DNA of 58,544 nt, the filler included, from Dugesia japonica (lineage: Eukaryota): the NCBI GenBank assembly GCA_001938525.1. It is 5 parts of 5 records of this genome, joined end to end, with 100 filler letters (N's around TTAATTAATTAA, not from the genome) between each part and the next. Parts side by side here need not be neighbours in the genome. Positions count along the whole stretch, not along the records: positions 20,438 to 38,638 come from MQRL01602112.1; 4 more parts are not named here. The stretch is one strand, 5' to 3'. A program made the position numbers and the translations under genes. The notes under the pieces were generated by a model, which saw only the letters and a program-made list of their open reading frames with translations, made no database searches and was not told the DNA's origin. Shown one piece after another: positions 1,502-56,700 of this stretch (its first letter is position 1; each line of letters begins with the position of its first letter).

Positions 1502-2938
1502 GTGATACAATTAAATATTGCGGGAGCGAGTGAGTTGCACAACCTTCAAAAGAGTGCTGAGGAATCTGAAGGCTGTTCCGAGCACAATTTTTTGCTTCGT
1601 TGTCTCCTTGATGAACAGAATCGATATGCCAAGTTCAACTTGCATATCGCGTTTTTAGACATTGCTGATGCCTTTGGAAGTATCCCAGTTGAGCATATTC
1701 TTGTTCTTCTTTCGAGAATGGGGGTCACCGAAAAGGCTACTGGATTAATCAGAGCCCTATATTCTGAATGCTCCAGCTATTACATCTGCAATAAGGTTTC
1801 TACTAACCCTATCGCTAACAAAAGAGGGGTTAGACAAGGCTGCCCTCTTTCAATGTTGTTGTTTAACATTGGCATCAATCCTATTATTAATGAGATTTCT
1901 AAAACTGAAGGTGCCGGTGTTAAATGTGCTGGACATCCCATATCTTGTTTGGCATATGCANACGATCTGGCACTTGTAGCCTCTTCCAAGGCTAGCCTAC
2001 AGGATATGGTTGATGCCGCTGTCAAATTTGCAGATTGGTCTCATCTTAATTTTCGGCCAAGCAAGTGCGCATATTTGTCTTGTCCAAAAAATAATGAACT
2101 TGCTCAAATTGTCGTTAGGGATGAAGCTATACCAAAACTGTTGAATAATGACTCTTATCGGTATCTTGGGGTCGATTTTAATCGTGTACACTTTCAAACA
2201 CCAACGGACATGTTTGCTAAAGCTGCAAAGGATGACAAGAAAATTTCTAACTCCGTACTGTATCCTTGGCAGAAAATCCACGCATATCGAACCTTTATTC
2301 ATTCTAGGTTCACTTTTGCTTTCAGAAACTTTAACATTCCGTTGGGAAAGTTTGACTGCAGTGAACATTATGAAAATGGAATTCTTCTTCGACTACGAGG
2401 TATCGATAAGCGCATTTGCACTAGCATTAGGCAAATCTTGTCTGTTCCAGCCACTGCTACATGTGACTATATGCATAGTTCTCGTAAACTTGGCGGGGTT
2501 GGGTTAACTTCTGCGAGGAACGAATATTCCGTACAATCTTTGGTTCAAGCTTTTAAAATGCTTACTTGTTTTGACAAGACTGTACGGGATGTCACCAGCA
2601 ATGATCTTGTTCATGCTGCGACTAAGCATCTTAAACGTTTTGATTTGCGTTCCTTAGATGAATCTCTTGATTGGCTCTTCATAGATACCACCAATTCGAA
2701 TCTGACGTGTTGGTGGTCTAAAGTCCATGAAGCAATTGCTTATCTGTACAGATTGTATTACATACAAATTAAGCTCAAAAGGAACGAACATGACATTTGT
2801 ATGCAGATAATTGATTGCTTCTCTGAAGGAAATTACTTAATTTCTTTCAAGGACCGGAGAGGTTATATGTTAAGGTTATATGTTAACATGAAAATAATGA
2901 ATAGAAAAGTTAATGAGCAAAATCGAAGAATCGATTGA
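1502..2938 (+). mobile_element. 5'-truncated non-LTR retrotransposon reverse transcriptase, R2 group (NeSL/Utopia-like); homology runs about 1560-2860
   Basis: RT motifs EGCSEHNFLL, FLDIADAFGSIP, GVRQGCPLSMLLFN, LAYAxDLAL, FRPSKC and YRYLGV. The LYPWQKIHAYRTF and RKLGGVGL thumb motifs are typical of NeSL/Utopia. No C-terminal CCHC or REL endonuclease is present. Confidence 0.85.
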
Positions 2939-11030: not shown

Positions 11031-13120
11031 TTTTATAATCCAGCAGTCTTGTGGAAATCTATGAAATAATAATCCGGGACTAAAACAAATAAATCAACAT
11101 ACCTGACATACACATACAATTGTGTTATCATCTCACATACCCCTCGTTTTAAATAGCTTTAGCCATTCTATATTTTGAACTATCTCTTTACTTTCAGAAT
11201 TTCTTAATTTAAAGCTATTATTGTGTATTTCATTTATAATTTCACAAGGTCCTCCGTATCTATTATCCTGTTTATCTCTTATGTCTATTTTTACCAGCAC
11301 ATTATCACCAATTTTGTAATGTCTAAGAATTTTTTTATCATTATTGTAATCATTAATCATATTAGTACTATGAATAACTTCCTTTCTTTTGCACCGAACA
11401 TCTTTCATCAATTTAATATATTCTAATGAATCTTCGCAAGATGGGATTTCATGGATAAACATTTCTTTGTTTATAATTTGGCCAAAAACAATTTCTACTG
11501 GGCTACATTTTAACTTTTTTTGNGTTGTCGCATTCAAAGCAAATTCTTTTGTAGTGCATCTTCCCAATTTTTATGTGATTGGTCCTTAAACTACAAGATA
11601 GCCAATCTCTTATTGTACTAAATTGTCTTTTTCCATTGGCTTGGTGATAGGGACTTGAATAAATAATATCAAAATTAAATTTTTCTGACAAATTTCGTAA
11701 TAAATTTGATTTGAAACCTTTGCCTCTATCTACATAAATTGTTTAAGTGGCACCATATTGAAAAATACATACATTTCGTGATGGTTTTATCATCTTGTGA
11801 TGTAACAGCCTTTAATCTTATATTCACTAAATTTATCAATTATAGCAAAAATATATTTCTTTCTGAAACGGTCCTCAAAAATCAATAAAAATGCTTTGAA
11901 ATATTTCATGTACATTACTTTTAACCATCATTTCTTTAATTTTGCATGTCAATGTTTTGCGTTTTTGACAAAAGTCACAATTTGTTATAATGTCTGTGAT
12001 AGTTTTATTTATATTTGTATAATCATATGATGCCGAAATATAATTTACGAGTTTATTAGTCCCAGCATGACACAGCTCTTTGTGTATTTCTAAAAAAGAC
12101 TCCTGCTTTCTTTCTTCGGGGATATATATTTTATTTTTCTGACTAAAAACTATGTTTTTATCCATATAAAATTTACTTTCTTGTTTGTCATTGATTCTTG
12201 ATATACATTTGCTTTGCCATTTATTTTCATTTTTTATTTCTTCAATTGCCAAAATTTTTGTCTTTATTCATTCTGTTTTTACATTTTGATGGGCCATCTG
12301 GCATTGTTTGCAATCTTCTATATTTAACCTTGATAGGGCATCAGCCTTATTGTGTGATTCACCTTTACGATATTCTAGAATCATATCCAAATTACTTAAA
12401 AAATTTATCCAGTTTTNAAATTGAGCTGCTATTGGTTTTTTTGTTGTCATCATAAAAGTAATTGCCTTATGGTCTGTCCTAAAAATGAATTTCTTTCCAT
12501 ATAAGTAATGTTTAAAATGTTGTACAAAGTAAAAAATTGATAAAAATTCCTTCTAAGTTATGCAGTATCCAATTTCATGTTTATTCATGCTTTTCGATCT
12601 ATATGCGATGATGACTTCTTTTAAATATTCATCTTTTTGTGATAAAACTGCGCCCTCTTAATCAAAACTTGCATTTGTATCTAAAATAAAAGTTTTCTAA
12701 AAGTTTGGATGTCTTAATATTAGTGTCTTTGTGAGACTTTCTTTTAGACTTTTAAACGCTTCTTCACATTTTTCAGTCAAACCTTATTTTACCTCTTTAT
12801 TCCCAATTAAACCTTCCAAAGTCTTGCAATTAATAATCTTTTATGAATTTGCGATAATAATTTGTTAGACCTTAAAAGCTACGAAGATATTTAATGTATC
12901 GAGGTTTTCTAAATTCTTTTAATCCCTTCCTTATTTTTAAGAACTTTAATTCGGATACTAAAAAATTGCATTTTTCTGGATTTATTTTTAGACCAGATTT
13001 CTTAATTCGTAAAATTATTTATTCAATCTTTTCTTTATGTTCATTGAAATTTTTTGAAAATATTAATATATCATCGAGATAAACCAGGGCTTCTTTCCAC
13101 ATTATGTCTAAAAATTGAAC
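11031..13120 (-). mobile_element. Ty3/Gypsy LTR retrotransposon 3' part (RT C-term, RNase H, integrase, PPT, start of 3' LTR), degenerate
   Basis: ALVYLDDILIFS (~13090), YRKGESHNKADALSR, IHKELCHAG..CDFCQ, SSPYHQANG and YKIGDNVLV..RYGGPCEI. Purine tract AAAACGAGGGGTA is followed by TG at 11137. Confidence 0.9.
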
Positions 13121-17274: not shown

Positions 17275-18029
17275 TATTTGTAAAATTGATGAAGAAATCA
17301 ATTGAATGAAACAAAACAGTACTGGTAAATCATTCCAAATATAATATGGGTATATTATACTTATTTTTATTAATGAATTTTTAAAATAAATTCAATAATG
17401 ATAATTATTTTTTAAAATAAATTTTTTGTATTGTTTTTGTAGTATTTTGTATATTTTTGTACTATTTTCAAATGATATTTTACATGTAACATTTCAAGTA
17501 GACAATATGTATCCAGTTAAAACTTTAAATAACAATATTTCTCTTTTTATATTTTTAAATTTTATTTATATTTCAAAAATAAAATAGTCAAAAATACCTC
17601 GCAAAATTATGATTTATTTCAATTTAAAATTATTAATTTTTTTAATATTTATTATCTATAGTTTCTTATTTGAGAAAACGCGTTTTTTTGTAGAATTTTC
17701 TGACATTAAAAATTTACATTGTTTTTGTAAAATACATTGGAGACACAAAGGTCCCCATGCGTAAGAATGTAATTATTTTAATTTTATTGCTCTAGGAGAA
17801 TTCTTAAATGAGAACAAATCTAATTAATTTGTATTAATTAAGGCATTTATCTAGAATAATTTAGAAAAATACAAAAATTTATTATTTACGCAATAAGCTT
17901 AACAGTTTCTAAACAAATATAACTATAAAAATGGATTCAAATCAAATTAAAGTTTTTGTACAAAAATTGTGTAGATTTTTAGAAACTAGAATTTGGTTTT
18001 AAATTTTGGAAAATTAAAAATGATATTTT

Positions 18030-19530
18030 TGTCTTTATATACCGTCGTTCCTCTCAATCTTCCTAATACTTTTGACATTAATTTTTGAAAAGTTCCAAGT
18101 GCTACAGCTATACCGAAAGGCATTCTTGTGAAACAATACTGCCAATTTTTCGTAGAAAATGCTGTTTTCTCTTGTGAATATTTATGTAACGGAACTTGAT
18201 AATATGCATTACTCAAATCAAAAGTACTAAAATATCTTGCACCACTCAAATTGTCTAGTATTTCCTCTACATTGGACATNNNNNNNNNNNNNNTTTCTGT
18301 GATTGCATTCAGTTTTCTAAAATCTAGATATAATCTAACGTCTTTCATTTCTTTTTTTCCAAACAGATATTAACGGAGTGTTCCATTGCAAATTGCACTT
18401 TCTAATAATGCCATTATCAAACAAATTCTTGATAGTTTCATCGATCTTATTCTCTAAATGCATTGGTTGTCTCCATGGTTTCGTATTTATTGGTTCTCTA
18501 TTTGTGATTATTTGATGTTCTGCTATTGTTGTTCTGTCGATATCCCAGTTGTCTGCCATGAATATTCCTTTATAAATCATTACAACTTTCTCCAAATTCT
18601 CGTTTGGCTTGCTAATCAATAATTTTATTTCTCTCTGTACTCTCTCTTCTTCCGTTGTATTGCTTTTTATTATTACAAATTATGTCTATTTCTTCTTATG
18701 TAATTATTCGTATTGTTCGAATAATATCTTTGTTTGCCATTTCCGAAATATTTTGTGGCCTGTTCACTTTTATTCTGATAACTAAACTATTTGTTCATAT
18801 TTGTGTAACAGTCCTCTGTGTGGTGTCTTTCTTTTTGCATCTTGAGCAATTAACTTTGGCACAGTCTCTTCTTAAGTGTTGTTCAGATCCAAAAGCATAA
18901 CATTTGTTTTTCTTTCTTGAAAATTTCTGCTTACATTTTGTTTCTGTTCTGCTATATTTCTTCATTACGACTTTTGTTGAAATGTGTTTGTACTGGACTT
19001 CGGTGAACTGCATCTCTGTAGTTACGAAATACATTTATTTCTTCAGTTTTTTATGTCTTCCCACTCTTTTATTCCTTTAAATACATCTTCTACTTTTATG
19101 ATTTTTCCTTATTTGACTTTATTTTTAATCTCTCTATCATTGCAACTATTCATTATTAGCTCTTTTGTTAAGTCATTTTTGTTCCATTTATGAGCCATTA
19201 GCTTTACTACTATTTTTTCTATCTTTTTCTTATAGATCCTCACATGATTTACATTCCTTTGATAAATTAGAGCTTCCTCCATATCTTTAAGCATTGTCAA
19301 TGGCCTAAAAAAGCCTTTCTAAATTTTTCTTCAAATCCTAATGCTTCGTCTTTATTTTCATAGATTTCACGTAGTTCTTTATCTATGAAAGCAACTATAA
19401 ACAAACTCCTATGGCCTTTCTTTGTCCCGGCTATATCAAAATATTACGTTGTCCTCAGAATAAATTTTCAGGAAATTCAAGGATGCATTGCTTCTTTTAG
19501 AAAATCCAATGTTGCATTGGTAGCCATATT
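18030..19530 (-). mobile_element. Ty3/Gypsy gag plus RT N-terminal fragment; protease apparently deleted
   Basis: Zinc knuckles CYAFGSEQHLRRDC and CSRCKK.., then HQIITNREPINTKPWRQP, RLYLDFRKLNAIT, FSTFDLSNAYYQVP and RMPFGI. Confidence 0.85.
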
Positions 19531-22384: not shown

Positions 22385-23543
22385 TCAAAGATTGTATTTA
22401 TGTTGCTTTTGAGATTCAATTTCCACTTCTGCTACTTTACATCTGTTGACGGCAACAATTATTGGATCATTTTGTTTATTTTTTATCACATGCAGATTTG
22501 TAGGATTTACTTTTATTACCTCATATAGGCCTTTGTAAGGTCTTGCTAATTTATTTGTTAATCCCTTCTGTGTAACTGGCGTTTTTATTCTCACTTTGTC
22601 TCCAACTTTAAAACTAGATTCTTTGGTTATTTTGATCATAATAATCTTTGCATTGTTTCTGTTTAAACTTTACTTTTAGATTTGCCTGTTTATATACCTG
22701 TTGTAATCTTTCCTGCATTTTTGTAGCGTAATTTGGATTGTCCATATACTGCGACACAATTGGTTCAAATGTTATATCTATTGGCATATGAGTTTTTCTG
22801 AGATACATAAGGTAAAATGGTGAATATCCCGTAGCTTCGTTCTCAGTTGTATTATGTATGAACAATGTTGGTTTAATAAATAGATCCCAATCATTTTGAT
22901 GTTTATTCATGGAGACTGCCAATCTATTATTACCNTCAGTTTGTGGGTGATAAGCCGTTGTATTTATTTTCTTAATATCAAACATATTTGTTACTCTTTG
23001 TATGACTTTGTTGAAGAAATTCTTTCTTCTATCTGATAACAGCGTTCTTGGCGCTCCATATTTGTAGATTATTTTCTCAACTAATAACCTTGCTACTGTA
23101 TCTGCTGTTTCATCTTTTTTTGGAAATGCTTCTGCCCATTTTGTAAAATAATCATTGAATACTAATATGTGTTTGTTACCCTTTATAATTGTTGGTGATT
23201 TGCATAGGAAATCCATTGCATATGTTTCCATTGATGACCTGGGTATTGGAATTGGTTGTGATGGAACTTTGGTTTTTGTTCCTGTTTTTTCTTTTAGCAC
23301 AAATGCTACATGCTTGGCACCTTTTTTTATATTTTCTTTAATATTATCCCAAAAATATTTTTGTAGTAATCTTGATGTGGTTTTTCTTCTTGATAAATGN
23401 CCTTCAAGCGCTCCATCATGATATTGTAGCAGTAATAATTGTTTTAAAGAATCTGGTACAATCATTAGATTTTTCCCTAAATTATTGTACATGAGCAAAT
23501 TCTTAACCATTTTATATTTAGTATTCTTTTCTTGAATCATCAT
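22385..23543 (-). pseudogene. Integrase (HHCC, DDE core, GPY/F), frameshifted
   Basis: QYHDGALEGHLS, YAMDF, DYFTKWAEAFP, LLSDR, TTAYHPQT and FKVGDKVRI..RPYKGLYEV. Confidence 0.95.
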
Positions 23544-23689
23544 CTTTTTAATGTCTTTTGTTTTTTATCTTTATTTTACTCTTCTAGAAACGTTTTCGAG
23601 TTTGTTTCAGTCATAACGATTGACATCATTTCCATTATATTTATTTCAGGAATTCTTGATAATGAATCAGCATTTTTATTTGCTTTACC

Positions 23690-25012
23690 TGGCTTGTATA
23701 TTATACGAATACTCATATCCTGAATTTTCATTGCCCATTTCAATATCCTACTGGATACATCTTTTTTTTTCCATAAACTCTCTAATGGTTTATGATCAGT
23801 TCGGATAACTATCTCTGTTCCATTTATATATATGGTCTAAATTGTTTCAACGCAAATATGATAGGTAAACATTCTTTTTCGATTGTTGAATATCTTTTTT
23901 CTGCTTCTTTTAACATTCTACTGGCATATGCAATGACATAATCTTTATTCTTTTCGTCCACCTGACCATGGTACTGCTCCCATAGCATATCCACTTGCAT
24001 CTGTCATCACTATGAATTGCTTTGTAAAGTCAGGATATCTTAATATCGGAGCTGTTAGCAATCGTTGTTTTAATGTGTCGAAAGCTTCCGGTTGTTTTGT
24101 ATCCCATTGTTTTTGAGGTTTCTTTGGTTTTTCATCTAATGGCTCTACAATCATGACGTTTTTACGTTCGTCTTTAGTCTTCATACCCTTTGTTAATTCT
24201 ACCAATGGTGATGATATTTTTTGCGAAATCTTGTATGAATCTTCGATAATATCCCACTAGACCATTAAATCCTTGTAATTGTTGTACGCTTTTTGGCACA
24301 TTAAAATCTTGGAACGCTTTAGCCTTCTTTGGATTTGGCTCTAATCTCTTTGATGACACAATATGTCTGAGAAATAAAATACTTTCCTCTGCCCATTTGC
24401 AGTTTGTGTGTTTTAACTTGATTTGTGCTTTTCTAATTATGAACAGTACATTTTCTATGTTAACTAAATGTTTTTCAAATGTTTCAGATGCTATGAGTAT
24501 ATCATCTATATATACAACTACATGTTCAACACCTGTTAAAACTGTGTTCATTTATCTTTGGAATGTAGCTGGTGCATTACATAATCCAAATGGTAGTCTA
24601 ACAAATTTATATAATACATCATCAGTACAAAATGCTGTTTTCTCTCGATCTTCTTCCTGTACTAGGATTACATTTTAACCTTTATTAGCATCCAAACTTG
24701 CAAAGTATTTTGCATTCATTAACTTGTTGAACTGTTCATGTATTTTTGGAAATGAGTGTGTATCCTTTTTGTAACTTTATTAAGTTTTCTGTAATCAATA
24801 CAAATTCTAATCTCGCCGTCTTTCTTTTTGACTGGTACCATTGGTGATGCCCATTGGGAAAAACTATCTTGTATGATTCCATTCGCTTTCAGTTTTGCTA
24901 CATGTCTTTTTATTTCTGGTCTTAACGCATATGGTGCTACATATGGTCGCTGTTTTATCGTTCTTGCGTCACCTGTATCAATTATATGTTTTATAATATT
25001 TGTTCCTCCCAT
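23690..25012 (-). pseudogene. Reverse transcriptase plus RNase H of the Gypsy element
   Basis: [86 protein letters not shown] and YKPGKANKNADSLSR. Confidence 0.95.
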
Positions 25013-25639
25013 ATCAAATTCATGTTTAGCGAATGCATCTTCATATTTGTCTAGTAATTTCTGTAATTGCTGTTGCTAATTTATTGTGAGATTTTTATTG
25101 GTTATCTTTGTTTCCTCATAATACTTTGTTTGCTTTTGTTTTATTAGTTCTTTGTCAGTTAGTTTTCCAGTTTTTTCCTGTTTCTCCAGAATAAGTTCAG
25201 CTAATTCAAGATTATTTAATTTACATCTCTTTTTTCCTGATTTCATATTTGGAAATTGTTTATTTTATCTCTGTACATTTACTCTCTTTTGTTGCTCCTC
25301 CGCTACAGTTTCATATATTTCATATTCATTCCCATTCTCAAATAATTTTCCTAATTTTGTGTTTTTCTGGAGAAATACATCATAGTTGTTATAGTTGGCT
25401 ATTCTCATTGGTATTATCCCTTTTTTTGGTTGTACACATACAGGCATTATTGATAAGTTGTGTTTTTTTATTAATTTATCATTTGGTTCAAAAATATATG
25501 ACTTGTTATTTTGTACTTCTGTATTTATAGGCATTACACATTCACTACAGCGTTCTACTGTTATTAAGTCTGTTGCACATTTCACATTACATTCATCTTA
25601 CACTGGTAATGGTGTTACCATTTTTAGTGTGCCATCTTG

Positions 25640-25940
25640 TAAATCAATAACATAATCTTTTAACCTTGCCAGAAAATCTTTACCCAAAATGCAATTATGT
25701 GTTCTTCTTTCCATATGTGTAACAATTTCTTGTCCAATTGTAACCTTACACTCCATTATGCCTTTCGTTGTTATTATATGCCCTGTAAATGATTTTATAC
25801 CTTCCTGTTTATAATTCTTTATTTTCTGTCTTTGGGATTTACTTAAACATGATTCTTTTATTATTGAACATACTGCTCCTGTATCTATTAATGAAGTTAT
25901 ACTTATTCTATTTATTATGATGTCTGTTGTTGGTCTATTA
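25640..25940 (-). pseudogene. Retropepsin (aspartic protease), in the same ORF (25598-26680) as the glycoprotein C-terminus
   Basis: ITSLIDTGAVCSII ... CILGKDFLARL. Confidence 0.95.
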
Positions 25941-26159
25941 TTGTCTGAATCTATAACTGATATTGAATAGTTGTTTTGATATTTATATTGTGTTGAATCA
26001 TCTATTTTTATATGTTTTAATTCGATGTGTTCTTGTTTATATGGTTTATATTCTGTATCTGATGGTTTATCATTACTTAATTTGGTCAATTCTTGCTCAT
26101 CATCCATGTTTACTGTATATATACCTCGATCCTTTTCTAGATTCTTTATTTTTTCACTA

Positions 26160-27660
26160 TGATTTTGCACAATCATGTGTTTCGCAATAAATGGACAAAA
26201 ACATGCTCCTAGTTTCCATGTGTAACCGAAAATTGCATGATGACCTGCTAATTTTAAAAATGTTAAGACATACCACCCAAATAAAATACATAAGAATATA
26301 TTGCCAAACCATTGCATTCCCTCCAAAAATCTATCTAAAAAATTACGCATTGCCTTTTTAAAATGATCTGCGTGTAATAGTGATTCAAAATTTACATCGT
26401 CTCCATTACTCCCTTTCGCTACTTTATCAACCATTATTGATATTATTTTTTCTCTTTGTATTGGAAAAGGCATATGTTTTCTTGCTTTCTCAATATCGTT
26501 AATTGTATAAATACCACGGTTTTCCATATTATCAATCCTTTCCATTTCTGTTTTTCTACTGAGTTCTATCATTTCCATCATCAGTGGAGTTGGTGCTGTC
26601 TTTCTGTCCGACACTGTTATCCATACCTCTTCAGTTAGTTTGTACATAGGATCAAGAATATTACTACACTTTTCAATCACTTTTGGTTAAAAATTTTATC
26701 TGTTAGAATTCTTGTTATTGGAAGCAAAAATACTTTCTCTACCTTATAAATTACTGGTAATTCATTAGTACATTTTTCATGATCTGTAAGCATAACTGCT
26801 ACTGGTTTACATTTAAAACTCACTCAAGTTTCTCCCACTATTCTTCCAAATCTTCCTCTTTCTTCAAACAAGAATGGTGTTATTAAATCCGGATTTGTGA
26901 CTACCATTGCCATTTTTGCTCTTAACAATTCTCGATTAGTTTTGCAAATTTTTATCATTGTTTCTTGATATATTCTATCTACTTGTCTTATAATTTCATG
27001 ATAGAGAAAATCAATTTTGTTGTTGAAATATGTAGCTATTTGTACGTCCAATTTATCTACCTTTGGTCTGACATCTTTAATTTCTATTGTTTATAGATAC
27101 AGCCCATTATAATTTGTAACTGTCACTGCCACTCCACACTTTGTACCTACTCATTTTTCAATAAGTCTTAATGCCTCTTGTGTTGAATTTGATATATATA
27201 CTGTTGGTGTTGCCTTTTCACCAATCAGGGTTGCTTTCCTTTTTGCATCTTGTATGTTAGGTGGCTTATCCGTTGGTAAAGTTCCACTAACTTTTCTCAT
27301 TACCACTGCCCTTAATTTCGTACGTGTACATTCAAATGGATTTACTTTATACAGGATCATAGACTCTCCAGTGTCACAACTTATATCTTTTGAGCTACAA
27401 AATGGATATGTCATCATCTTCTTCTTCAAATTTTACGCTACATTCATGCGTCTACATGTGCGAAATCAGATTCTTGATATAAATGTATGATTTTTGGATT
27501 TGATATTTTTATTTTCGTCGGATGCGCCTCCGGACATTCTCAACATCTAATAATGAGTACTTTTACCCCATTTTGGAGTATTACAATCATATGCTACCAT
27601 CGCATTTGCTCCTCTTGCTAACTCTAATAGCATTATTATAATTGTTATTATTGTACCCAT
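26160..27660 (-). pseudogene. Envelope glycoprotein, chuvirus-like class III fusion family, fragmented
   Basis: Signal peptide MGTIITIIIMLLELARGANA, then MVAYDC..YSLLDVEEC..IHLYQE. Core DVQIATYFNNKIDFL..KICKTNRELL..GRIVGE..FKCKPVAV..CTNELPV..FLLPITRIL..CSNILDPMY. TM WFGNIFLCILFGWYVLTFLKL. The motif order matches chuvirus-type glycoproteins. Confidence 0.85.
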
Positions 27661-27762
27661 TAGTGGTCGATTTGATTTTTTGGTCTCTTTGTTAATGAGT
27701 TTCTTTATTTCATCCTCCTGCTCTGTTGGCTGAATTTTTTGTTTACGATTACTTGTTGGATA

Positions 27763-28122
27763 TAACGTTTCCAAACCTCCTTCTTGCGTGATCCACGCGT
27801 TAATTCCTCTGTTCAAAAACTGATTAACTATTCGTTCTACAACTTCAATGTTTTTTTCAGGTCTCTAAACTAATTCTTCCCGATTCTTGAGTATTAGATA
27901 CAAAATAGCTGTAACTACCTTATTTTTGTTTATTCCTTCATTCATCATTGTTTTTAATACTTTATAATCATCAATTTCTAGATCTGTTATTATCAATTTG
28001 CTCACTTCTTTTAATATGAGTTTCATTTCCTCGAATATCATTAGTGCTCTATTCTGAGTTATTATACAATCATATAGATCAGCGTGTACCAATTTAATTA
28101 GGCTTCTTATAAGTCCTTGATC
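27763..28122 (-). pseudogene. Bcl-2-like helical domain (one in-frame stop at 27865-27867)
   Basis: BH1-like MMNEGINKNKVVTAILYL (cf. LFRDGVNWGRIVAFF) and BH2-like FLNRGINAWITQEGGLETL (cf. YLNRHLHTWIQDNGGWDAF), at plausible spacing in one frame. Confidence 0.65.
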
Positions 28123-28469
28123 TGATCCTGCTGATGCTTGCTCATCACATCTTTATGATATATTATTCAAATGTTAAGCCTGCAATTTTTCTGGTATTAT
28201 ATCCTATGATTTTGGTCTACCTCTTGATCTCTTGTAGTCTGATACTTTGTCTTTAAATATTTTCTGTCTTAGTATTTCACTTCTTGCATTATCTGATGTT
28301 GATGATTTTCCAACTCTTGTGCTTGATGTTGGTAGCTATTTTGTCTTTTTTTTGTCTTTTTTTCTTGCTGGCTTGCTCTTTCTTCCTAGACTCTATCTGC
28401 TTGTGCCATCATACTCAAAATTTCCTACATAGATGGTTGTTGATTATTTTTTATGCTTGTGATGTATGT

Positions 28470-28714
28470 TTCATTATCGTTGCTTTTATGATGGTAACAT
28501 TACCTGGAATAATTCCATATTCCATCAAAGTATTATTCTCATTTAACTCTGTATTATAAAAAGATAATTGTATCACATTTTCATTTTGTAACACTATTGG
28601 CCAATCTCTTTTCAACGTTTTATATAATTTATTCGTTTTTGTACACGCATGCATCGTCAGTTCTAATGCTGTTAAAGAACAATCGTTTTGTTCTGCTATT
28701 ACTTTGACATTTAA
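28470..28714 (-). pseudogene. Ubiquitin-like (beta-grasp) domain
   Basis: LNVKVIA..ALELTM..TKTNKLYKTLK..IQLSFYNTELNENNTLMEYGI (cf. [21 protein letters not shown]). Confidence 0.65.
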
Positions 28715-29099
28715 CGACTCCTGTCAGGTTTCATTTCTTTTCACATGTTCACTATATTTTTGAAATATCTCATCTATTGCTTCCAAATTCTCTGATATCT
28801 CTATTTTACTTCGAATTTTTGCTAAAATGATTATTATTAGTTTAATTTTCTGAAGGTTGATAGGATATTCATTAATATCTTTCAAATATTGCAAGAATCT
28901 AAGTTTATTAGTTCTTTCTTTTGTTATCTCTAATCGGACATTCTCTATCAATATTTCTTGCTTCCTTTCATCAATTGCATCTAAATCCACTTCTCTTGGC
29001 TCACACATATTGATTTCATATTTCTCTCTCTTGCTGTCTCTCCATCATAAGCTGATAATGTATTTTCATATCTTCTAACTCACTTCTCATATTTTCATA

Positions 29100-30269
29100 A
29101 GCTTCATTATCGATTACTTCAATAGCATTAGCTTCTCTTGTATCTGGACTGAATGATACATCTTCTTTTAGAATACTTCTAAATTCATTTGGTTTATTTC
29201 TACTTACTCTTGCTATATATTCATATTTATTACAATTATAACACTTTATTTGCTCACTGTTGTTTAATTTATCTCTACTTTCATTTGAAAAATACGGGCT
29301 TGGACTTTTTATATTATCATATTTCTTTGGACTATATCTCGATTATCTCGATTATATCCTCTTGCAGGACTTGCGTTCCTGTCATAATTTCTACCTGGGT
29401 TGAAATTTTTATTATAATTGTTATAATTTCTTCCAGGACTCGAATTTCGATTTTAATTGTTATAGCTCTTTCCGGGGCTTGAATTTCTATTGTAGTTATT
29501 GTAATTTCTCCCAGGACTTGAGTTTCTGCTGTAATTGCTATCATTTCTTTGATAATATTCCGTTTTAAATATCACATCTTGATGTTTTCTACTATCTTGA
29601 CGATTTTGATATGCTTTCCTCATCTCATTCCATGACGATTCCTCGTTACTCGCTTCAATTGTATATATTTATCTGGTTTTCTCTTTATGCTTAGTATTCG
29701 CCTCAATTTGCTTTGCTTTTGTTGTTAGTTCCTCTAAATCTTTATATTCTGCTGCAATTAGACCATCTCGAATATGTTTATGTGTCCCATTCAGAAATTG
29801 AAATTCTATGATATGACCAGTATTATCTCCTTTTCCAAAAGCTTGTTCTGCTAACCTTGTTAATTCGTATATATATATTCGCTCACGGTTACATTTGATG
29901 ACTGTGTTCTATATCTGAACTTTTGCATGCAGACTCTTTCTGATTCACTTGGGACTATTATATTTTTATCAACTTTTTTATTAACTCATCCGATTTATCA
30001 GGTTTAACATCCATATTTTTGTAACATTTTAATGCATATTCCTTCAAATAAAGTGGTAATCGTTTAACTAATTCTGCTTCTGTCCATCCACAAGCTGTGG
30101 CACAAACATGCATATGCTCAAAGTATTAGTCCAATTCTCCAGGTTTCTTTGCATAAAACTGTATGAGTAATACATTCAATGTACCGCGGTATCCAAATCC
30201 ATCACCTATTTGATCATTAATCGGTAAATTTTTAAGTGGCATATTTTCATTATTATTTGCCGCCGCCAT
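29100..30269 (-). pseudogene. gag: gag (capsid, 13-aa repeats, degenerate zinc knuckle)
   Basis: ATG at 30269 (MAAANNNE). CATACGWTEAELVKRLPLYLKEYAL is a Ty3-capsid-like motif. Knuckle remnant CYNCNKYEYIARVS at ~29215-29256. Confidence 0.85.
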
Positions 30270-30646
30270 TTTTTGGATATTTCTGTTTCGCAACTTGTAT
30301 ACTATATTCTCTTCAATGATTATTCCTTCAGTTTCGTTTCAACTGATACACTAATCAAAAAAATTCTTCGGTTTCGTTTCAACTGATAAACTTTGAATGA
30401 CTGTTAACTTTATTATTTTAAGGGAACTGATTTTATATTATCAAAACTTTGGTAAGAGATTGCGGCAGGAATTCAATCCGATTCTAATACCAAACTTAAG
30501 ATAATCAAATTTATCAACTTTGATAAGAGATCGTAGTATAATTTTCTCTTATATCTGATATCAAACTGATCAATACACGGTATATTTTAATAAAGGTCTG
30601 AACATCCGCTTGATTTTAGATTAATTTTAATAATTTTTATTATTTT

Positions 30647-30667
30647 GATTCCTTGTTCGCGGCACCA
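30647..30667 (-). promoter_or_regulatory. Primer binding site, tRNA-His-like
   Basis: The minus strand TGGTGCCGCGAACAAGGAATC lies 4 nt downstream of the LTR end. It is complementary to a tRNA 3' end ...TCGCGGCACCA, resembling the His acceptor ...CACGGCA-CCA. Confidence 0.8.
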
Positions 30668-30671
30668 ATTT

Positions 30672-31540
30672 TGTTGGGTATTTCTACTCAACAAGTTATT
30701 TTATGGTTCGTTTGTTTTATAACTATTGTTCGATAGTATGTCAATGAATTTAAGGGTGTTTGAATTTACCCTGTATATGTTAATACGATATTATATAATA
30801 TATACCTTTAACTGAAAATTATAAATAATGTAATATGTGTAAGTACCCTATATATATAAACCAAAGATATACCTTTTACAATAATATATTTGGATGTATA
30901 AAATAATATAGGTACAAGCTTAAGACCTCATTAAGCAGTATTCTAAATCAGGTTGACGATGCCGCCCAGAGAGGTTGGATGTCAACTGACTAAAAGTTAC
31001 TGAACCACCACTGAAACAGATTAGTATTTATACTAATTCTGACCAGTAGATTTTCACACACACATAACATTAAAATATATCAATTAATAAAATAAATAAC
31101 ACCTGTATTTGTTTTCACAAAAAAATCAATAAAAATATATTAATTCCCCAATGTAGATTAAATTCCAATAATTTTTTTATACTCAATGCACAAAATTTAT
31201 TATAACAAAATTAATCAATAATTCAAATAAATAAAGTCAATTTTCTATGTACCAAATTTCTTACAACAAAAATCAATTAATAATTTCATTTACAAAATAA
31301 ATAAAGTCAGATAAATAATTTGAAAATCATTTAATTAAATAGCCAATTAAATAGGATGGGGATCCATTATTTTTGATGATTAATGAGTTTGGATTTGGAG
31401 CTGGAGGATATTGATTTGATTTGATTCTTTTTTTTCTTTTCATTGATTTCAAATATATATTTATTTACATGCTATGTATATGTATCTATATGTGTTTATT
31501 ACTTTGTGATATATGTATCTATTGCTTTGTAACCTCAACA
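30672..31540 (-). repeat. 5' LTR (~870 bp)
   Basis: Bounded by inverted TGTTG...CAACA termini and directly adjacent to the PBS. The outer boundary is inferred because no second LTR is available. Confidence 0.65.
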
Positions 31541-32605: not shown

Positions 32606-33210
32606 ATGAGTTCTCAAAATATTCCTCCACCTCCGCAATATCCAAATTATTCTAATAATGATTTAGCAGGTAAAATTGTAAATGGTATTTATATAAATAA
32701 CTTTTTGAAATTTCAGAAGCAAATATTTCCAAGGAAGGGTCAATAATGGAAAATTCAGTTGTAATTTAATAATAAATTTTGTAAACGGTGTAATGATGAA
32801 TTATTGCTAGATTTATATCTCAGACAATGGATCTCCAAATTATAAGTCGACACTATATAATACACCAAATCAGATCTTACCGAATCTTGTAAATTCAATA
32901 AACAGCACATATCAAAATTTACCTCCAAAAAGTCCTAAATCGAACTACAGAAATGTAATAAATAGCAACAATAATAACAGTGGTCTCATGAATAACAACA
33001 ACATTGACAATCACAATAATTTAATGAGTAATAACATAAATAATCTTCAAAAAATACCAACTCAATGGCGACCGCAACCGATAATGGAGAATTCTTTCCC
33101 TAATGACTTCCATGGTATTCCACGCATCTATCAGAACAGCAACAGTAATTTCAATACGAAACCGATCCAACCGCAATATTGGATGATGAAACCGAAAGAA
33201 GAATGGGAAG
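32606..33210 (+). CDS. First three coding exons (32606-32669, 32717-32760, 32811-33210) of an unidentified N/P/Q-rich host protein
   Basis: ATG, then two GT-AG introns of 47 and 50 bp with consistent phases, giving an open frame MSSQNIPPPPQYPNYSNNDLAEANISKEGSIMENSVIYISDNGSP...YWMMKPKEEWE. Donor at 33211. Confidence 0.7.
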
Positions 33211-33299
33211 GTTCGATTTGATTTATTATTTTAATATTTTATTTTACCTGCAAAATTTATCAAATTTAATAATCGATTAAATAATTTTTAATTGATTTT

Positions 33300-34945
33300 A
33301 ATATGAAATATGAATATGTAGTTTATTTAATTAATAATAATAAATGAATTAATCAAATATTAATTAATTAAATAATAAATAATCAAATATTAATTTATCA
33401 AATATTTATTAATTAATCAAAAAATAACTAATTAAATATTAATTAATCATATATTAAGTAATAATTCAAATATTTATTAATTAATCAAATATTAATTAAA
33501 TAAATATTAATTTATTTTATCAAATATTCAAATATTAATCAAGAATTAATTAATCAAATAATAAATAACCCAATATTAATTAATCGTATATAAAGTAATT
33601 AATCAAATATTTAATAATTAATCAAATATTAATTAATTTTCAAATAATTATTAATCAAATATTAATTAATTTATCAATTATTAATAAATTAAATATTAAT
33701 TAATTTATTAAATATTAATTTATCAAAAATAAATTAATTAATCAAATATTTAATAATTAATCCAATATTAATTTATAAAATTTTTTTAAATCAAATATTA
33801 ATTAATCAAATATTAATTAATCGTATATAAATTAATCGTATATTAAGTAATTAATCAAATATTTTTTAATTAATCAAATATTTAATAATTTATCAAATAT
33901 TAATTTATTTTTCAAATAATTATTAATCAAATATTAATTAATTTATCAAATATTAATTTATCAAAAATAAATTAATTAATCCAATATTAATTTATCAAAT
34001 TTTTTTAAATCAAATATTAATTAATCAAATATTAATTAATTTATCAAATATTAATTTATCATAAATAAATTAATTAATCAAATAATAAATAATCAAATTT
34101 TAATTAATTAATAAAATATTAATTAATCAAATATTAATTAATTTATCAAATATTAACCTATCAAATATTAATTTTATCAAAATATAATTTATTAATCAAA
34201 TATTAATTAATTAAATAAATCTTAATTTATCAAATATTCAAATATTAATCAAGAATTAACTAATCAAATAATAAATAATCAAATTTTAATTAATGAATAA
34301 AATATTAATTAATAAATTATTTAATAATTAATACAATATTAATTTATCAAAATATAATTAATTAATCTAATATTTTTTAATCAAATTATTATGTTTTAAA
34401 TATTTATTAACTAAATAAATATTAATTAATCAAATATTAATTAATTAAATAAATATTAATTTTATCAAGTATTCAAATATTAATCAAGAATTAATTAATC
34501 AAATAATAAATAATCCAATATTAATTAATCGTATATTAAGTAATTAATCAAATATTTTTTAATTAATCAAATATTTAATAATTAATCAAATATTAATTAA
34601 TGAAATAATTATTAATTTATCAAATAATAATTTTCTCAAAATATAATTAATTAATCAAATACTAATAAATTTATCAAAAATTTATTAATTAATCATATTA
34701 ATTAATTAATCAAATATTTATTATTTAATCAAATAATTATTAATCAAATATTTATGAATTAATCCAATAATTATTAATCAAATTTTAATTAATTAATTAA
34801 ATATTAATTAATCAAATCATTAATAATTAATCAAATATTAATTAATTAAGTATTAATTAATTAATCAAATATTATTTAATCAAATATTGATTAATAAAAT
34901 ATTAATTAATTAATCAAATAATCAAATTAAATAAATAAATCAAAT
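33300..34945. repeat. Degenerate extremely AT-rich satellite built from AATCAAATATT/AATTAATT units
   Basis: About 1.6 kb of near-continuous variants with almost no G on the + strand. Confidence 0.9.
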
Positions 34946-39785: not shown

Positions 39786-40515
39786 CAGCTATTTTCATCC
39801 TAATTAATACTTTATACAGGCAATTAAATTTTTATTCTACCAATTTAATATTTTTCTCATCAAATTCATATATTTTTCAACTAATTTAGTACCCAAGTGA
39901 ATTTTTTGTATTTTTTACAAATTTCAGATTGGAACAAAATTGTTTAGACATCGTTTAATACATTGTAAATACATTATTTATATATGGTGTTATTTTTTTT
40001 AAAAATTAAAAAAAGAGATCCTAATAAAATAGATGCCTAATAAAACNATTAAAGACAGTGGCCGAGAAAGAATTGTCACGATGCATCTTGATGGATATTC
40101 TAAGCCTGAAATTTCCCAAATCATGTATATCCCATTTCCATTTGTCTGTAATGTGATCAAGTTGTACGATGAAACAGGTCGCATAAAAGCAAAACCCCGT
40201 GGCAGTCCAAAAGTTACAAAACTCATACCTGAGACTAGAACAGCAATTCGCTCTTGGATTGACGAAGATTGCGGTATTGCTCTAATGTCTCTTGTTAAGA
40301 AAATTCATTCAGAGTTTAATATCACTGTTTCTATGTCTGCAGTTAACAGGGCCATGTGCAAGTTTAACTACAGTGTTAAGGGCACCAGTCTCATCCCAGA
40401 GAGGCATTTAAAGCATTTTGTAAGTAAATTTTTCAAAATTTTTCTTGACTATTAAAGTGAATGAGAAAAATATTAAATTGATTGAATAAAATATTAATTG
40501 AGATGAAAACAGCTG
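39786..40515 (+). mobile_element. Tc1/IS630-like internally deleted transposon retaining the HTH-coding half (ORF 40033-40455)
   Basis: TA-flanked TIRs CAGCTATTTTCATC / revcomp CAGCTGTTTTCATC. ORF RERIVTMHLDG..YDETGRIKAKPRG..ITVSMSAVNR. Confidence 0.8.
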
Positions 40516-43560: not shown

Positions 43561-44819
43561 TAAAACATAACAAATTTTATCAATTTTATTAGATTTTTAA
43601 ATTTTTTTATTAAATTTAAATATTTTAAAATTATAAAACGATCACATTTTTTTATATATCCTATATTTGAACATATCAGTATCAATATTAATACCAATAT
43701 CAATATCAATATCAATATCAATATTAATATTAAATTCATACATAGATTGCTCAATATCTATTACGAAAAAGTCACCAAAACTAATTTTTAAATATTTTAT
43801 TGTTTTTCAAAATAATCTCCTTCGTGATTGATACATTTTTTCCGTACGAGAAACCCAATTTTCAAAACATAGTTACCATAGTGAATCAGGTATTTTGGAA
43901 ACAGTGGTGTGTGTGAATTTGCATTGTCATGATGAATGATCCGGCGCCACACGTTGTTTATTCCTTATTCTTTCAATAATCTCTGGAAAAGAAATGATTA
44001 TGTACCATTCAGAGTTAAAATTCTAGTAATCTGATCGGCACACTGTTGATGAAAAAATTCACGTCGGAAATTGTAAAAAATAATACCATGAAAATTAACA
44101 CGAATTAAATTCATTTTTAAGCAGGGATAACNAATTCAAATTTAAAATTTTTAATATTGATTATTCAAATAAAAGTTANAAATTTTNTATGTTGATAATA
44201 ATAGTTACACTTCATTTAGAAAATATCAGATCGCATCTAGCTAAAGTAATGTCGTTAGATCGCGATATATATACATATATCGAGAAAACCACGTATCATA
44301 TCATGTCAATATTGATATCAAAACCAATATCTATATTAATATCACTATAAANNNNNNNNNNNNNNNNNNNNNNNNNNNNNNNNNNNNNNNNNNNNNNNNN
44401 NTTCACGTCGGAAATTGTAAAAAATAATACCATGAAAATTAACACGAATTAAATTCATTTTTAAGCAGGGATAACAAATTCAAATTTAAAATTTTTAATA
44501 TTGATTATTCAAATAAAAGTTAAAAATTTTGTATGTTGATAATAATAGTTACACTTCATTTAGAAAATATCAGATCGCATCTAGCTAAAGTAATGTCGTT
44601 AGATCGCGATATATATACATATATCGAGAAAACCACGTATCATATCATGTCAATATTGATATCAAAACCAATATCTATATTAATATCACTATAAATGCCG
44701 ATATTAATGCTAATATCAATATAATATTCATTTACAATATATATCTATATTTCAAATTATTTTTAAATTACAGATTTGTAATTTTATTATTTTTCTAAAA
44801 TTTAATAAAAAATTAGTAC

Positions 44820-45216
44820 CCATTTAACCCAATATGGTCTATATCCTAAATTCTTTGGATCAACATAAACCATACCACATCTTGAAATTGTTGCTGGAGA
44901 GGCATATTGTAAATCACCAACTTCAAATAATAAAGAACAATGTGGCTGTAATCGAATTCGTTCACCATTAACAAGAGTTAATAATTTATTATCATCCATA
45001 ACGGAATTCATATTCTCAATCCATAATGCATCAACGTCACCATCAAATAATAAAAAACGTCTCTCTTCTTTATCAGTTTGTTGATTTATTTGACGAAATA
45101 TCGATGAAAGTAAACCATCTGTCCAATCTCTACTTGCTGGATCCAATATTCCATATAATTCATTAACTGTTCTTTCTTTGGGATTAATTGTGTACAGCTT
45201 TGTTTGTACTTTCAAA
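44820..45216 (-). CDS. DNAH10: Axonemal dynein heavy chain exon (AAA2), DNAH10-like
   Basis: ELYGILDPASRDWTDGLLS..LFDGDVDALWIENMNSVMDDNKLLTL..ASPATISRCGMVYVDPKNL. AG/GT boundaries; phase matches the upstream exon. Confidence 0.9.
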
Positions 45217-45999
45217 CTTAAGATTTAAACAAAAATGTTTGTTAATGCAAATAAATATAAATTAAAAATAAAAAATCAATAATAATTTCAATTAAACAAT
45301 ATTAAAAACAACAAATCAATAAATGTTTTTAAAGATTTAAATTTGTATGTTTTTCTCTCAGTTTCTCGTGAATTTTACTAGGTTCTCTGGAAAATTCATT
45401 CGGTTTTTCACTAATAAATAAAAGCAATTTTTAAACACAGAAAATCTTTATTTTAAAACCTTTTATGCACTATTATCAACAATTTTTTACTATCATTCTG
45501 TCAATATCGTAATTTCTTTTTCAAAAAATTTCTGATTTTTTCAACAAAAAATGCATCCCAGTTACGTTTTGATACTGTCACCTGGAGTAAAGATTTTTCC
45601 AGCCAATGAATAAATTCATTTATTTTATTTTNNNNNNNNNNNNNNNNNNNNNNNNNNNNNNNNNNNNNNNNNNNNNNNNNNNNNNNNNNNNNNNNNNNNN
45701 NNNNNNNNNNNNNNNNNNNNNNNNNNNNNNNNNNNNNNNNNNNNNNNNNNNNNNNNNNNNNNNNNNNNNNNNNNNNNNNNNNNNNNNNNNNNNNNNNNNN
45801 AGCAAGAATTTTCTGTTCAGCCTGATATAATATGGTTTGAATAATATTATTTGAAATGTTAGGTTAGTGTAAATATTATGATTTCTTGACTTTTTTAATC
45901 ATTCGAAGATCACAGTAGACATATGGTAACAGTAAACATCAATATCTGCTACTTAAAGAAATAAATCAAGAGTTTAAAAAAATATCGTCACATCAAAAA

Positions 46000-50136: not shown

Positions 50137-50193
50137 TATTAGGTAATTAAAAATTTGTACATTAAATTATGAATAATGATTCTAAATTTCCAG

Positions 50194-51415
50194 ATCTCAA
50201 TCCCACAGATAATTTTAAAGATATTGATATTATTTTCACGGTAAATCTCAGCGACATTTCTGCAATGCAGAAAATTAAAAACACAGTATTTTCATTGATG
50301 ATAGACTTGTTGAAGAAGCATATTAACAATAAAGCAGAATGCCTTAAACAGAACTTCATCATAAATGAAGAATTAATCAAAGATAATTATATTCCTAAAA
50401 TGACTCGTATTATAAGCAATCAAGAATCAAATGCAGATTGCTGGTCGTTAATTTCTCTTGGAATGTCAGAAATTGGAAGTGAAACTATAGAGTTAAAATT
50501 TATTGATAAAATGAAAAGACAATACGAATTCACAATTGATTCATTTCAAATAGTTTTAGATACAATGTTAGCCTTTTATACTGTCAGTAAATGTTCCTCA
50601 ATCACACCGAATCTTTTTCCTACTGTAGTTGCAGAATCAGTGTCTGGTAGTTTTCAGGAGGCTTTTAAACACTTGAAAGATAATATAATCTCAACCAAAA
50701 ATCCAGAAGAAATTCATGGAGGAGGACTTCTTAAATATTGTCAACTAATAGCAGCTGGATATCATCAAAATTCATTGATGGATGTTAGAGCAACAGAAAA
50801 ATATATGTGTTCTCGATTTTTTATTGATTATCCCGATATAAACTGCCAAAAACAAAAACTAGAATCGTTCTTAGAATCATTAAATGATTGTAATTATGAA
50901 GTGAAAATCAATTTGCTAAATGTAAATTTTATTGTTTTCTAGAAAATAGATATAAATTTTAAATTTCATAGATACTTTATGAAGTGGTATCACATTCTAC
51001 AGTTTGTCTTATGACCCACGAGAGACGTCAAACTCTGCAAATGATCAATAATTCTGTACAGAATATCTTATCAGAAATCGAAATTAAAAAATCTACAGTT
51101 CAATTGGATGATTTAAGTAGCCAAAACTGGGTTCTCGATCAAGTGTTCTATGGAACATTTTATTTCCCACAACAAGTTTATGTTACTGGGCCCATGAATA
51201 CAACTCAGCCGAACAATTTAAATCTTGGGAATATATCAGGTAACCAAATTTTAATTTGTACTGGAGACAATACTGATTTCATGACAACCACTAATCAAAT
51301 CGTATCTGTAAATCATACGACATCTACCGCCATCGATAGTAATTCATGGTTAAACGGTTATCAAAACCAGAATAATCAAATCTATTGTTGTAACGGCCCA
51401 TTAATGTGTGCATAA
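50194..51415 (+). CDS. TENT5: TENT5/FAM46 terminal nucleotidyltransferase, last two exons (50194-50921, 50972-51415); 5' exon(s) not located
   Basis: FKDIDIIF, DCWSLISL, IELKFIDKMKRQYEFTIDSFQI, PTVVAESVSG, GGGLLKYC, YMCSRFFIDYPD and STVCLMTHERRQTL. The 50-bp GT-AG intron 50922-50971 joins the two ORFs in frame. Confidence 0.9.
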
Positions 51416-53747: not shown

Positions 53748-56700
53748 TTACCTGTAGATGCGTTTTTTCATCCCAGTCTTATTTATTAAGAGATAGAATA
53801 ATGCCCGCATGGTATGCTTATGTTTATGCAAGTCCACTCTTTTGTCATCATTATTGATTAATGCGACTTTTGGTTCTAAGAAACTATACAACTGGTGGTT
53901 TTTTGTTCCTATTCTAAATTGTCTTACTGAGACAGATTGACTGTTATTGTAACAATTAAGGTACGGATGATGATTTATGTCGGTACCTTTTAATGTTATG
54001 CCCTTCGCTTTCAGCGATTCCTTCTCGCTAAGTAGGCTATAACACTTCGGTCTCAGGAACACCCATTCTTTATATTTCCTTCCTTTATTTTCGTCTTTAA
54101 ACTTTCCTACCACCGAATTGAGTTCCATATTGTAAAGAGTGTGGTCTGGTGAGTAATTTAAAGTATCTAATAATCGGTCTTTTACCATCAGTGGCAATAA
54201 CTTTTCCAACTTAATGTTCTTAACTTCTAAGAAAAAGTTATCGGTATCCCCAGCTACTATTCCTATCTCACAATTTTCTTGTTTCCTATACTTCCCTAGC
54301 TCAATGTATTGAAGTCGATACATTCGTAATTAGCTTAAATCGAAAACTGTCTGTCCTATGGAACTCGGCCTTTTGTGAAACACAATGTCTTTATTTAATT
54401 GTACCGCTATTAAATCTTTATCGATCTTAATGGTTCTCCTAAACCCTGGTTTTGAGGTATAGGTCACTAACTTCTTTGCTGAATTACATATTCTCAAGTT
54501 TATTCGTTTCTTTAGATTTTCAACTGATTTACAATACAAACTGTTGTTCATGAGCTTATAGTAATTTTTATCCAATTCATCCACACTTTCAGCCCTTAAC
54601 TTGATGTTTTCATCGATATATTGCTTGAAAATATGATCGTCTTAAATTCTAACTGCCCTGAGAACATTTGTAACTTGCAAACCTAATTGCGAATACATTT
54701 GCAGTAATCTCCAGTGCACTAGGTAATTGAACTTTGAATAAAGAGACAACTTTATTTTCTTGACTTTGCTTCATGGAGCACATTGATGTTCAGCTGCAAT
54801 GGGTAAGTCATTTAGATAATCATGAAGGTCATTGGGAATCTCAATGTCAACTTCTAGAGTGTATCCATATTGTAATGACTCGAGATCTGCATGTTTACAT
54901 TCTTCTACAACTAATTGTAATCCACAATATACGCATTCCAAGTCTTTGTACGGCTCAAAGCCCAATCATACAGGTTATTCATATCGATATATAACAACTC
55001 TGTGTTTCCATCTGATATAACATGGTGTTGGTTGACAAAGGTGATCCCACTTCTAATTCTACCTTCGAATAAGGTGTACATGTCGTTATCAGTCAAAAGC
55101 TCGATGGGTTCGTTTAAAGTTATCAGAGCAGATGCCCAGCTCATACCTGGAGGCCAAAGAAATTTAAGGGTTTCAGTTGGTTGTGAGCTAATGACTTGGC
55201 TCGGAATTGCTGAAAACAGTCAGCTAGGAGAAAGACGTCCAACTTCATGTACACCAACATATAGTCCAGTAAGTTTTAGCATTTAAAGATTTTCCACATC
55301 TCTACCGCTTTTTCATGTTCTTCATCACTAACTCCATCCCACTTTGGTAGCATTTCCTTTGTATTAACCAGTACTTGTAAACTGGTAGCGTGATTGTATG
55401 GGAAAATCCCCTTTGTCCTTATAATTCTGCTGTCGATAAATTCCTGTTTNNTNTTAAAATTAGGAGTTTTTTTTGTAAGTTTTAACAGCTGAATCCAGAT
55501 ATAAATTGATAAATTTATATGAATCAATAAATCGAATGGTAGGTAATTTCGTTTGATGTGCAATAAGACACAAGAACTTTTCGTTTGTAGTTGGAATATA
55601 ACTGAGGTTCCAATGTGGAAATTGACAGATTCCATGCTTAAGAATATGGTGCATGACATATTCTCTTAAATTATGGAATACAGCAAATAATTGTATATTC
55701 ATTCTTCTGCTTAGATTGCAACTGTTGCATGCTGCATCCATATATTCACCTGTAAAAATGATCCTAGTCTCTAACAGGATTTATTAATGATTTCTCACAT
55801 AAATGACATGTTTTGGTAGCAACAAAGAAAATTTCTTGATCCAGAGTTATATTTATCTTCTTTCTTTCCATTATTCATATAATATGAATACACAGTATTC
55901 TTGTTGATTTTCTCAATCTCTTTCAAAAACTTAAAAACACAGTCGTTTCCGATAAATTCTTGATATTTTGTTTCTTTAGTCTAATTATTAACTAGCAAAA
56001 GTCCGGCTGTTATAGGTAAATGTTTTTGATGATAATCCTCATCCGGTGATAATACTGATTCACAATCAGCGTATTTGACGAATAGAGGACTTAAAGTTTT
56101 TGAATAGTCAGTAAATTCTAAGTAAGCATCAATCGGCATGGTATATAACGTGGTACCTGTCTGGATTTTACTACAAAGAGGCTCATGTTCTTTTAAAGTT
56201 GCATTATCTCGGAATCCATTCAGACAATTAGGGTGCCATGTTTACTGTATTCGGACACCTTTCTTCTTAATATGTCTATTCATAAGCCTATCTAGATTTA
56301 TTATGGCTGTGTAATGACACCTTTGCTTATCTTCTAATAGTAAAAAATTTATTTTTCTTCACTCGGTTATTTTCGATCTATGAATTGTGTCAAAATTCGG
56401 ATGTTTCATTACAACGTCATCGTATTCAACTGTTTGCAAGTTCCAAGTTAAAATATTGATGGAAAGTCCTGGGTTTTGTTTTTCAAATTTTGATATATTT
56501 ATTAACTTTATTGGCATATTTTTTTCGTCGAATATAAGTTCCTTTATATATTCTTTATATTTCACTGCTCGATGTTTATTACTATCTTCAACTACATTGC
56601 GTTTAAGGACAAAAATAACACTGTAGATGAAACATAAATTATCCGTGTTCTGAACATTGATTATGGCTTGTTTTCTTACCAGATTATTAGGTGTGGGAAT

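Follow-up and report, generated by a model that had tools for sequence, protein, structure and literature searches.

What is encoded between the Gag and the Bcl-2-like part of a decayed retroelement in the genome of the planarian Dugesia japonica, and what would it do in copies that are still intact? The locus lies in a stretch of 58,544 nucleotides from assembly GCA_001938525.1, made of five parts joined with filler and analysed as a whole (hereafter the window). On its minus strand, positions 28454..28723 hold a segment that is likely an integral SUMO/ubiquitin-like domain (UBL), with a core of approximately residues 4-82 (28714-28478) and with Gly-Gly absent. The following sections deal with the element that carries this segment, with the segment itself, with its state in other copies and with the role it may have.

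The element and its probable accessory block

Read along the minus strand, the order of parts is Gag, a helical segment, the UBL, a basic linker, a Bcl-2-like segment, a gB-type Env and PR-RT-RNase H-IN, which is best explained as a Ty3/gypsy element that has decayed, with a Gag-Env-Pol layout of the Burro type known from planarians. The coding span, counted from the Met of Gag through the post-integrase part, amounts to 8,637 nt (approximately 8.6 kb, or 2,880 codons), and its ORFs are not intact, being interrupted by many stops and frame changes. Self-BLAST found no LTR pair. A primer-binding-site-like stretch starting with TGG was read from the sequence at 30650..30667 (minus strand; tRNA not matched), and the region around it, 30300-30800, is densely covered by other copies. 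The broken Gag (29045..30269, minus strand) comprises a capsid part, Asn/Ser/Arg-rich repeats and a decayed zinc knuckle, and was delimited by translation and by a tblastn match (E 1.7e-4) to residues 45-282 of P0005, the one intact relative among 3516 candidates, which in an ENA assembly presents a single Gag-Env-PR-RT-RH-IN ORF of 2871 aa. Gag is followed by the helical segment (28727..29044, minus strand, 106 codons), which belongs to no assigned family: a low-confidence AlphaFold model gives it four helices, neither Pfam nor the ESM Atlas returned a usable match, and a TFIIS-N-like identity was unsupported by Pfam, Atlas and model alike.

Downstream of the UBL, translation reveals a Ser-rich linker of basic character, interrupted by stops and changes of frame (28153..28453, minus strand). 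An AT-hook-like motif, RSRGRPK, is located in it at 28230-28210, in the frame of the Bcl-2-like segment, with a Lys-rich run further upstream. The Bcl-2-like segment itself (27770..28152, minus strand, the lower bound being approximate) contains one internal TAG; it matches PF00452 with an E-value of 0.038, below the cut-off, and phmmer against the PDB gave no Bcl-2 match. A hydrophobic helix at 27607..27663 on the same strand (Kyte-Doolittle 1.84 over 19 residues), where the PF24664 match starts, is likely an internal Env signal peptide. It is in frame with the preceding Bcl-2-like segment, aligns with residues 572-593 of P0005 and could double as a membrane anchor of the Bcl-2-like segment. 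The broken Env, of gB type (Monjiviricetes-like), occupies 26060..27606 (minus strand; PF24664, E 1.5e-26 and 9.4e-20), with a transmembrane helix near 26299-26243, and the likewise broken PR-RT-RNase H-IN region spans 22400..26059 (minus strand), as defined by the Pfam families RVP, RVT_1, Integrase_H2C2 and rve and by tblastn to P0005. Beyond the integrase, 22384-21633 (minus strand) is likely to correspond to a second surface protein, with a second signal-like helix at 22366-22310, beta-rich pieces and a transmembrane helix at 21710-21654. In P0005, too, the integrase is followed by a long extension, which contains hydrophobic stretches and gives a second, weak protease-like match.

In tblastn comparisons P0005 matches the element both before and after the block formed by the helical segment, the UBL and the Bcl-2-like segment, while the block has no counterpart in it; because the intact relative matches both flanks and not the block, the latter is likely to be accessory.

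The remainder of the window, which is AT-rich and contains gaps, holds an assortment of other features. A host nucleotidyltransferase exon lies at 50166-50939 (plus strand; PF07984, E 3e-73). We take this exon to be TENT5/FAM46-like. There is also a dynein-related AAA exon at 44805-45224 (minus strand; PF07728). Other gypsy-type pol gene fragments were found at 11136-13096 and 17989-18679 (minus strand), together with a non-LTR RT-like frame at 1484-2935 (plus strand), a Tc1-like transposase HTH piece at 40033-40452 (plus strand), pieces at 53751-57381 (minus strand) that by eye resemble a Polinton-type DNA polymerase, with no Pfam match at 0.01, and an AT-rich satellite of 15/19-nt units at 33200-34900.

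Reading frame and identity of the segment

From stop to stop, the frame of the UBL runs on the minus strand from 28723 to 28454, that is 90 codons encoding 90 aa, with QESLNVKV at the N-terminus and the first Met only at residue 24 (position 28654). A single TGA (28724..28726, minus strand) marks the boundary with the helical segment, which is in frame with the UBL across it. This stop-to-stop translation bears out the original prediction, in which 28470..28723 was said to be in frame with an ORF at 28724-29008 across one TGA. The motif LSF...L....TL.EYGI quoted there was also located in the 90-aa frame (LSF at residues 53-55, L at 60, TL at 65-66 and EYGI at 68-71), and inspection of the translation confirmed the claimed lack of a C-terminal GG, Gly-Gly being absent throughout the 90 residues. 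The UBL thus placed lies between Gag (approximately 30269-29050) and the Bcl-2-like segment (28152 to approximately 27770), and in this copy it is out of frame with both, with one change of frame near 29050, where Gag gives way to the helical segment, and another past a TAA at 28453-28451.

The evidence on the nature of the segment comes from profiles, structure models and homology searches. Its sole match to a UBL family in Pfam was Rad60-SLD (PF11976), over residues 28-71, with 15.1-15.5 bits and E-values of 0.016-0.02, below the curated gathering cut-off of 23.8 bits. In the remaining five frames of this DNA no UBL family was matched; on the segment itself VPS13_VAB scored slightly above PF11976, and the ubiquitin family PF00240 gave no match at E-values up to 10. 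In the ESM Atlas (recognition 2701), four of the six clusters listed carried ubiquitin or Rad60-SLD families at 0.90-0.91, the two top sets being unnamed; the named clusters share 145-159 features with the segment, fewer than the 170 that true family members typically share. Residues 53-71 align with ubiquitin 43-61, with ubiquitin positions 43, 45, 50, 55, 56, 59 and 61 kept. Similarity to ubiquitin as such was not significant: a profile built from 79 distinct viral ubiquitins (95 usable of 121 loci) scored 1.0 bit, which was equalled by 268 of 2000 shuffled sequences, and the pairwise ubiquitin score was equalled by 1101 of 2000. AlphaFold run without an alignment yielded unusable models in both runs (pLDDT 39 and 30). 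The beta-beta-helix-beta pattern originally proposed for the segment should accordingly be taken as a reading of the sequence, of which the quoted motif is present and for which these models offered no confirmation. As for the profile and structure searches by which the domain was to be recognised, the profile side produced PF11976, below its cut-off, with a non-significant ubiquitin profile, and the structural side nothing usable. Taken by itself, the sequence makes a weak case for a UBL.

Searches for relatives returned a single candidate for a different fold. With phmmer over 1.84 billion proteins no UBL was recovered, and the only match was a sea-urchin hyalin-like protein with HYR repeats (E 4e-4); together with the all-strand topology, devoid of helix, of the low-confidence 90-aa AlphaFold model, this would fit some other small beta-rich fold, such as an HYR/Ig-like sandwich, rather than a beta-grasp. 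The match was nevertheless set aside, since its E-value sums four near-identical repeats, none of which exceeds 14.6 bits. A shuffle control (0 of 2000) is invalid for a match picked from 1.84 billion proteins, and Pfam HYR did not match the segment. Furthermore, the segment precedes the signal helix and would consequently be cytosolic, and the published Burro annotation has PF11976 at this place (PMC6431247). A non-beta-grasp fold is therefore considered improbable. The other searches were negative: phmmer against the PDB gave no UBL and one unrelated match, a word-based homologue search with the 90-aa segment found nothing among proteins of 159-2000 aa (8 candidates) or 49-158 aa (1 candidate), and the viral and metagenome contigs scanned with the helical and UBL stretch contained no relative.

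What changes the weight of the profile match is its context. In Burro elements of planarians a PF11976 domain has been described upstream of BCL-2, followed by Env before the protease (Arkhipova and Yushenova, 2019; PMC6431247). With a match to this Pfam family where related elements are known to carry it, we regard the assignment of the segment as a UBL as likely.

Other copies of the element

The frame was also examined in other copies through contigs from four sequencing runs of the host's DNA. With a minimum identity of 80%, these contigs cover the whole element stretch, and many sites are covered by dozens of different ones, although depth summed over contigs is not a copy number. The junction between the helical segment and the UBL is bridged without gaps by divergent contigs, for example over 28474-28793 (64 differences) and 28621-28904 (49 differences). 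At the TGA (28726-28724) most of the depth differs from this copy at two of the three positions in all four runs, with 249 and 231 of a depth of 299 in run X1. This stop is a lesion in the present copy, not a regulatory feature; programmed read-through was rejected because most copies lack that stop. No indel was listed for 28560-28800, three of the 32 pieces listed were gapped, and in each run one contig jumps over 97 bases.

The variants point to selection on the UBL frame. Thirty-eight of the 40 listed were classed, excluding the two on the stop and without four further ones. Of the 21 segregating variants in the covered part of the UBL (28594-28721), 14 fell at codon position 3 (p 0.002 relative to one third) and 13 were synonymous (p 0.011 against the 0.35 expected for transitions), and none created a stop, in line with the conservation among copies by which the original prediction was to be checked. 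The eight near-fixed differences in the same part comprised five non-synonymous and three synonymous changes, also without a stop, and the helical part, where few sites are covered, showed no codon-position bias (3 of 8). Since variant sites depend on one another and close copies pass the identity filter more readily, the p-values are supporting rather than exact; with this reading, they support purifying selection on the UBL frame among copies. The absence of the TGA from most copies and the preference of variants for third codon positions indicate that the segment was coding. In one RNA run, 194 reads mapped over 3.8 kb, none at 99% identity or above and four at 95-99%, so that expression of this copy is unsupported. 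It is a relic that probably yields no protein.

Possible role and relation to known systems

The function that we predict, and consider on balance the more probable one, is that of an integral SUMO-like domain for non-covalent docking of host proteins of the SUMO/ubiquitin pathways. In intact copies, everything from Gag through the helical segment, the UBL and the basic linker to the Bcl-2-like domain would be translated continuously and stay in the cytosol, a single Gag-to-Bcl-2-like polyprotein that we infer from the anatomy of the element. Env would be directed into the ER by its internal signal helix, which would at the same time hold the Bcl-2-like domain at the membrane in the manner of a tail-anchored Bcl-2 protein, and Gag would be released by the protease that the element encodes. 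In a next step the UBL would bring SUMO or ubiquitin machinery of the host to the accessory block, setting its stability, location or partners, and this recruitment may help the host cell to survive during replication of the element. The domain is probably integral rather than conjugated, as had been proposed for it in opposition to a conjugatable modifier: Rad60-SLD is its best profile, its Atlas neighbours include UBL clusters, it lacks a di-Gly and Burro elements provide a precedent.

Other roles have to be weighed against docking. The segment might be a unit for folding or solubility, a spacer, or a regulator of the element's own protease following a Ddi1-like logic, without any host SUMO/ubiquitin partner, as its distance from ubiquitin and the absence of the block from P0005 would allow; yet the protease is approximately 800 codons and two membrane helices away from it, and the corresponding Burro domain sits among MATH/TRAF, BIR and BCL-2 domains, which points to host ubiquitination and apoptosis (PMC6431247), so that we hold this reading to be rather unlikely. 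Ubiquitin-family clusters among the Atlas neighbours are compatible with a proteasome-docking UBL of the Rad23/BAG1 kind, which would bring about turnover of the Bcl-2-like product or of its partners. A UBL adjoining a Bcl-2-related module would be reminiscent of BAG1. Proteasome docking, which was part of the original prediction, is nonetheless disfavoured in this copy because the position aligned with Ile44 is Ser; the Gly47 equivalent is Asn, both positions belonging to a decayed copy and to the edge of the stretch covered by other copies, and the lack of a PF00240 match argues in the same direction. Altogether, this role seems highly doubtful.

A processing signal of the type found in cytopathic pestiviruses, cut by a host protease and releasing the Bcl-2-like product, would suit a position in the polyprotein just upstream of an accessory domain. 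Ubiquitin C-terminal hydrolases need a C-terminal di-Gly. None of the 90 residues form a Gly-Gly, versus 78 of the 79 fetched ubiquitins that end in it, and the similarity to ubiquitin itself is not significant. In the pestivirus precedent, cellular ubiquitin C-terminal hydrolases cleave the inserts immediately behind the ubiquitin moiety (PMC8310069). The analogy drawn with it in the original prediction loses its support because the di-Gly that these enzymes need is absent from the UBL. We consider such a signal very improbable indeed.

Going further than the docking role, one may speculate that the helical and SUMO-like pair is a mobile accessory cassette shuffled between positions by planarian retroelements, and that it forms, along with the AT-hook-like linker and with a Bcl-2-like domain held in the membrane by the signal helix of Env, the minimal anti-death module of the Burro family, in which a SUMO mimic hijacks the host sumoylation machinery and keeps element-producing stem cells alive. 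This proposal we regard as unlikely as it stands. The IAP module of Burro1 (BIR plus RING) is reported, at second hand, to protect planarian stem cells from apoptosis (PMC13465017), and the literature searched, which did not include the primary Burro papers, contained no functional test of a Burro-type UBL. An established function for the UBL would reveal by what route a retrotransposon draws on the SUMO/ubiquitin pathways of its host.

Among known systems, cytopathic pestiviruses share with this element the presence of a UBL within a viral-type polyprotein, but their inserts are recent captures of near-intact ubiquitin cut by the host, whereas the present domain is far diverged, lacks Gly-Gly and has been kept across many copies (PMC8310069). 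A closer parallel is offered by the Rad60-Esc2-NIP45 family, whose integral SUMO-like domains have been proposed as non-covalent SUMO mimics (PMC549199). PF11976 is the best UBL profile here and the domain is likewise integral; it differs in being a single internal domain of a retroelement polyprotein that scores below the family cut-off, and orthology is not evidenced.

With respect to the element as a whole, GAG-ENV-POL elements of gB type have been described in Nematoda, Bryozoa and Platyhelminthes (Chary and Hayashi, 2026; PMC13524379). The present one resembles the HSV/gB-type errantiviruses of Platyhelminthes in its Gag-Env-Pol order and its gB/Monjiviricetes-type Env, and differs from them in its broken ORFs and in that no paired LTRs were found. 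Over a 47-residue Env stretch from 27423, counted by eye, approximately 25 of 47 residues agree with Smed_errantivirus_3 and 15 of 47 with Smed_errantivirus_1; the former is nearest by this stretch and would be of similar span if its 14.5-kb locus includes 3-kb flanks. Neither ubiquitin nor Bcl is mentioned in the main text and seven supplements of PMC13524379.

The closest correspondence is with Burro1/GYPSM1, giant gypsy-like elements of 4,873 aa with MATH/TRAF, BIR and ankyrin domains and, according to HHpred, a dUTPase-like domain between PR and RT (PMC6431247). The PF11976 domain and its position in this element family are thus already known, having been published in 2019. As described for Burro1/GYPSM1, Gag comes first, the PF11976 Ubi2/SUMO-like domain is located upstream of the BCL-2-like one, and Env lies between BCL2 and PR, followed by Pol; PF11976 was found here at the place expected from Burro, as was a candidate PF00452 match before Env, with the sub-threshold E-values given above and, for the latter, without a PDB match. 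Env is in frame with Pol in both, the Env C-terminus and PR sharing here one open frame at 26686-25601. The differences lie in the span (approximately 8.6 kb, or 2,880 codons, versus 4,873 aa), in the broken state of this copy, in the helical segment that precedes the UBL, and in the accessory domains: MATH_TRAF_C, BIR and ankyrin had no Pfam match among the ORF pieces scanned, and dUTPase had none on 25597-25268, Pfam being less sensitive than the HHpred used for the published call. Because of its compact span and the lack of MATH, BIR and ankyrin matches, the element is a compact relative of Burro1 and not Burro1 itself. This relative and the purifying selection on the UBL frame are what is new here, a small addition that adds little alone. 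Of an accessory block, this relative of approximately 8.6 kb has retained no more than the helical segment with the UBL, together with the Bcl-2-like domain, and this fact, along with the purifying selection on the UBL frame, suggests that this pair constitutes the core of the block.
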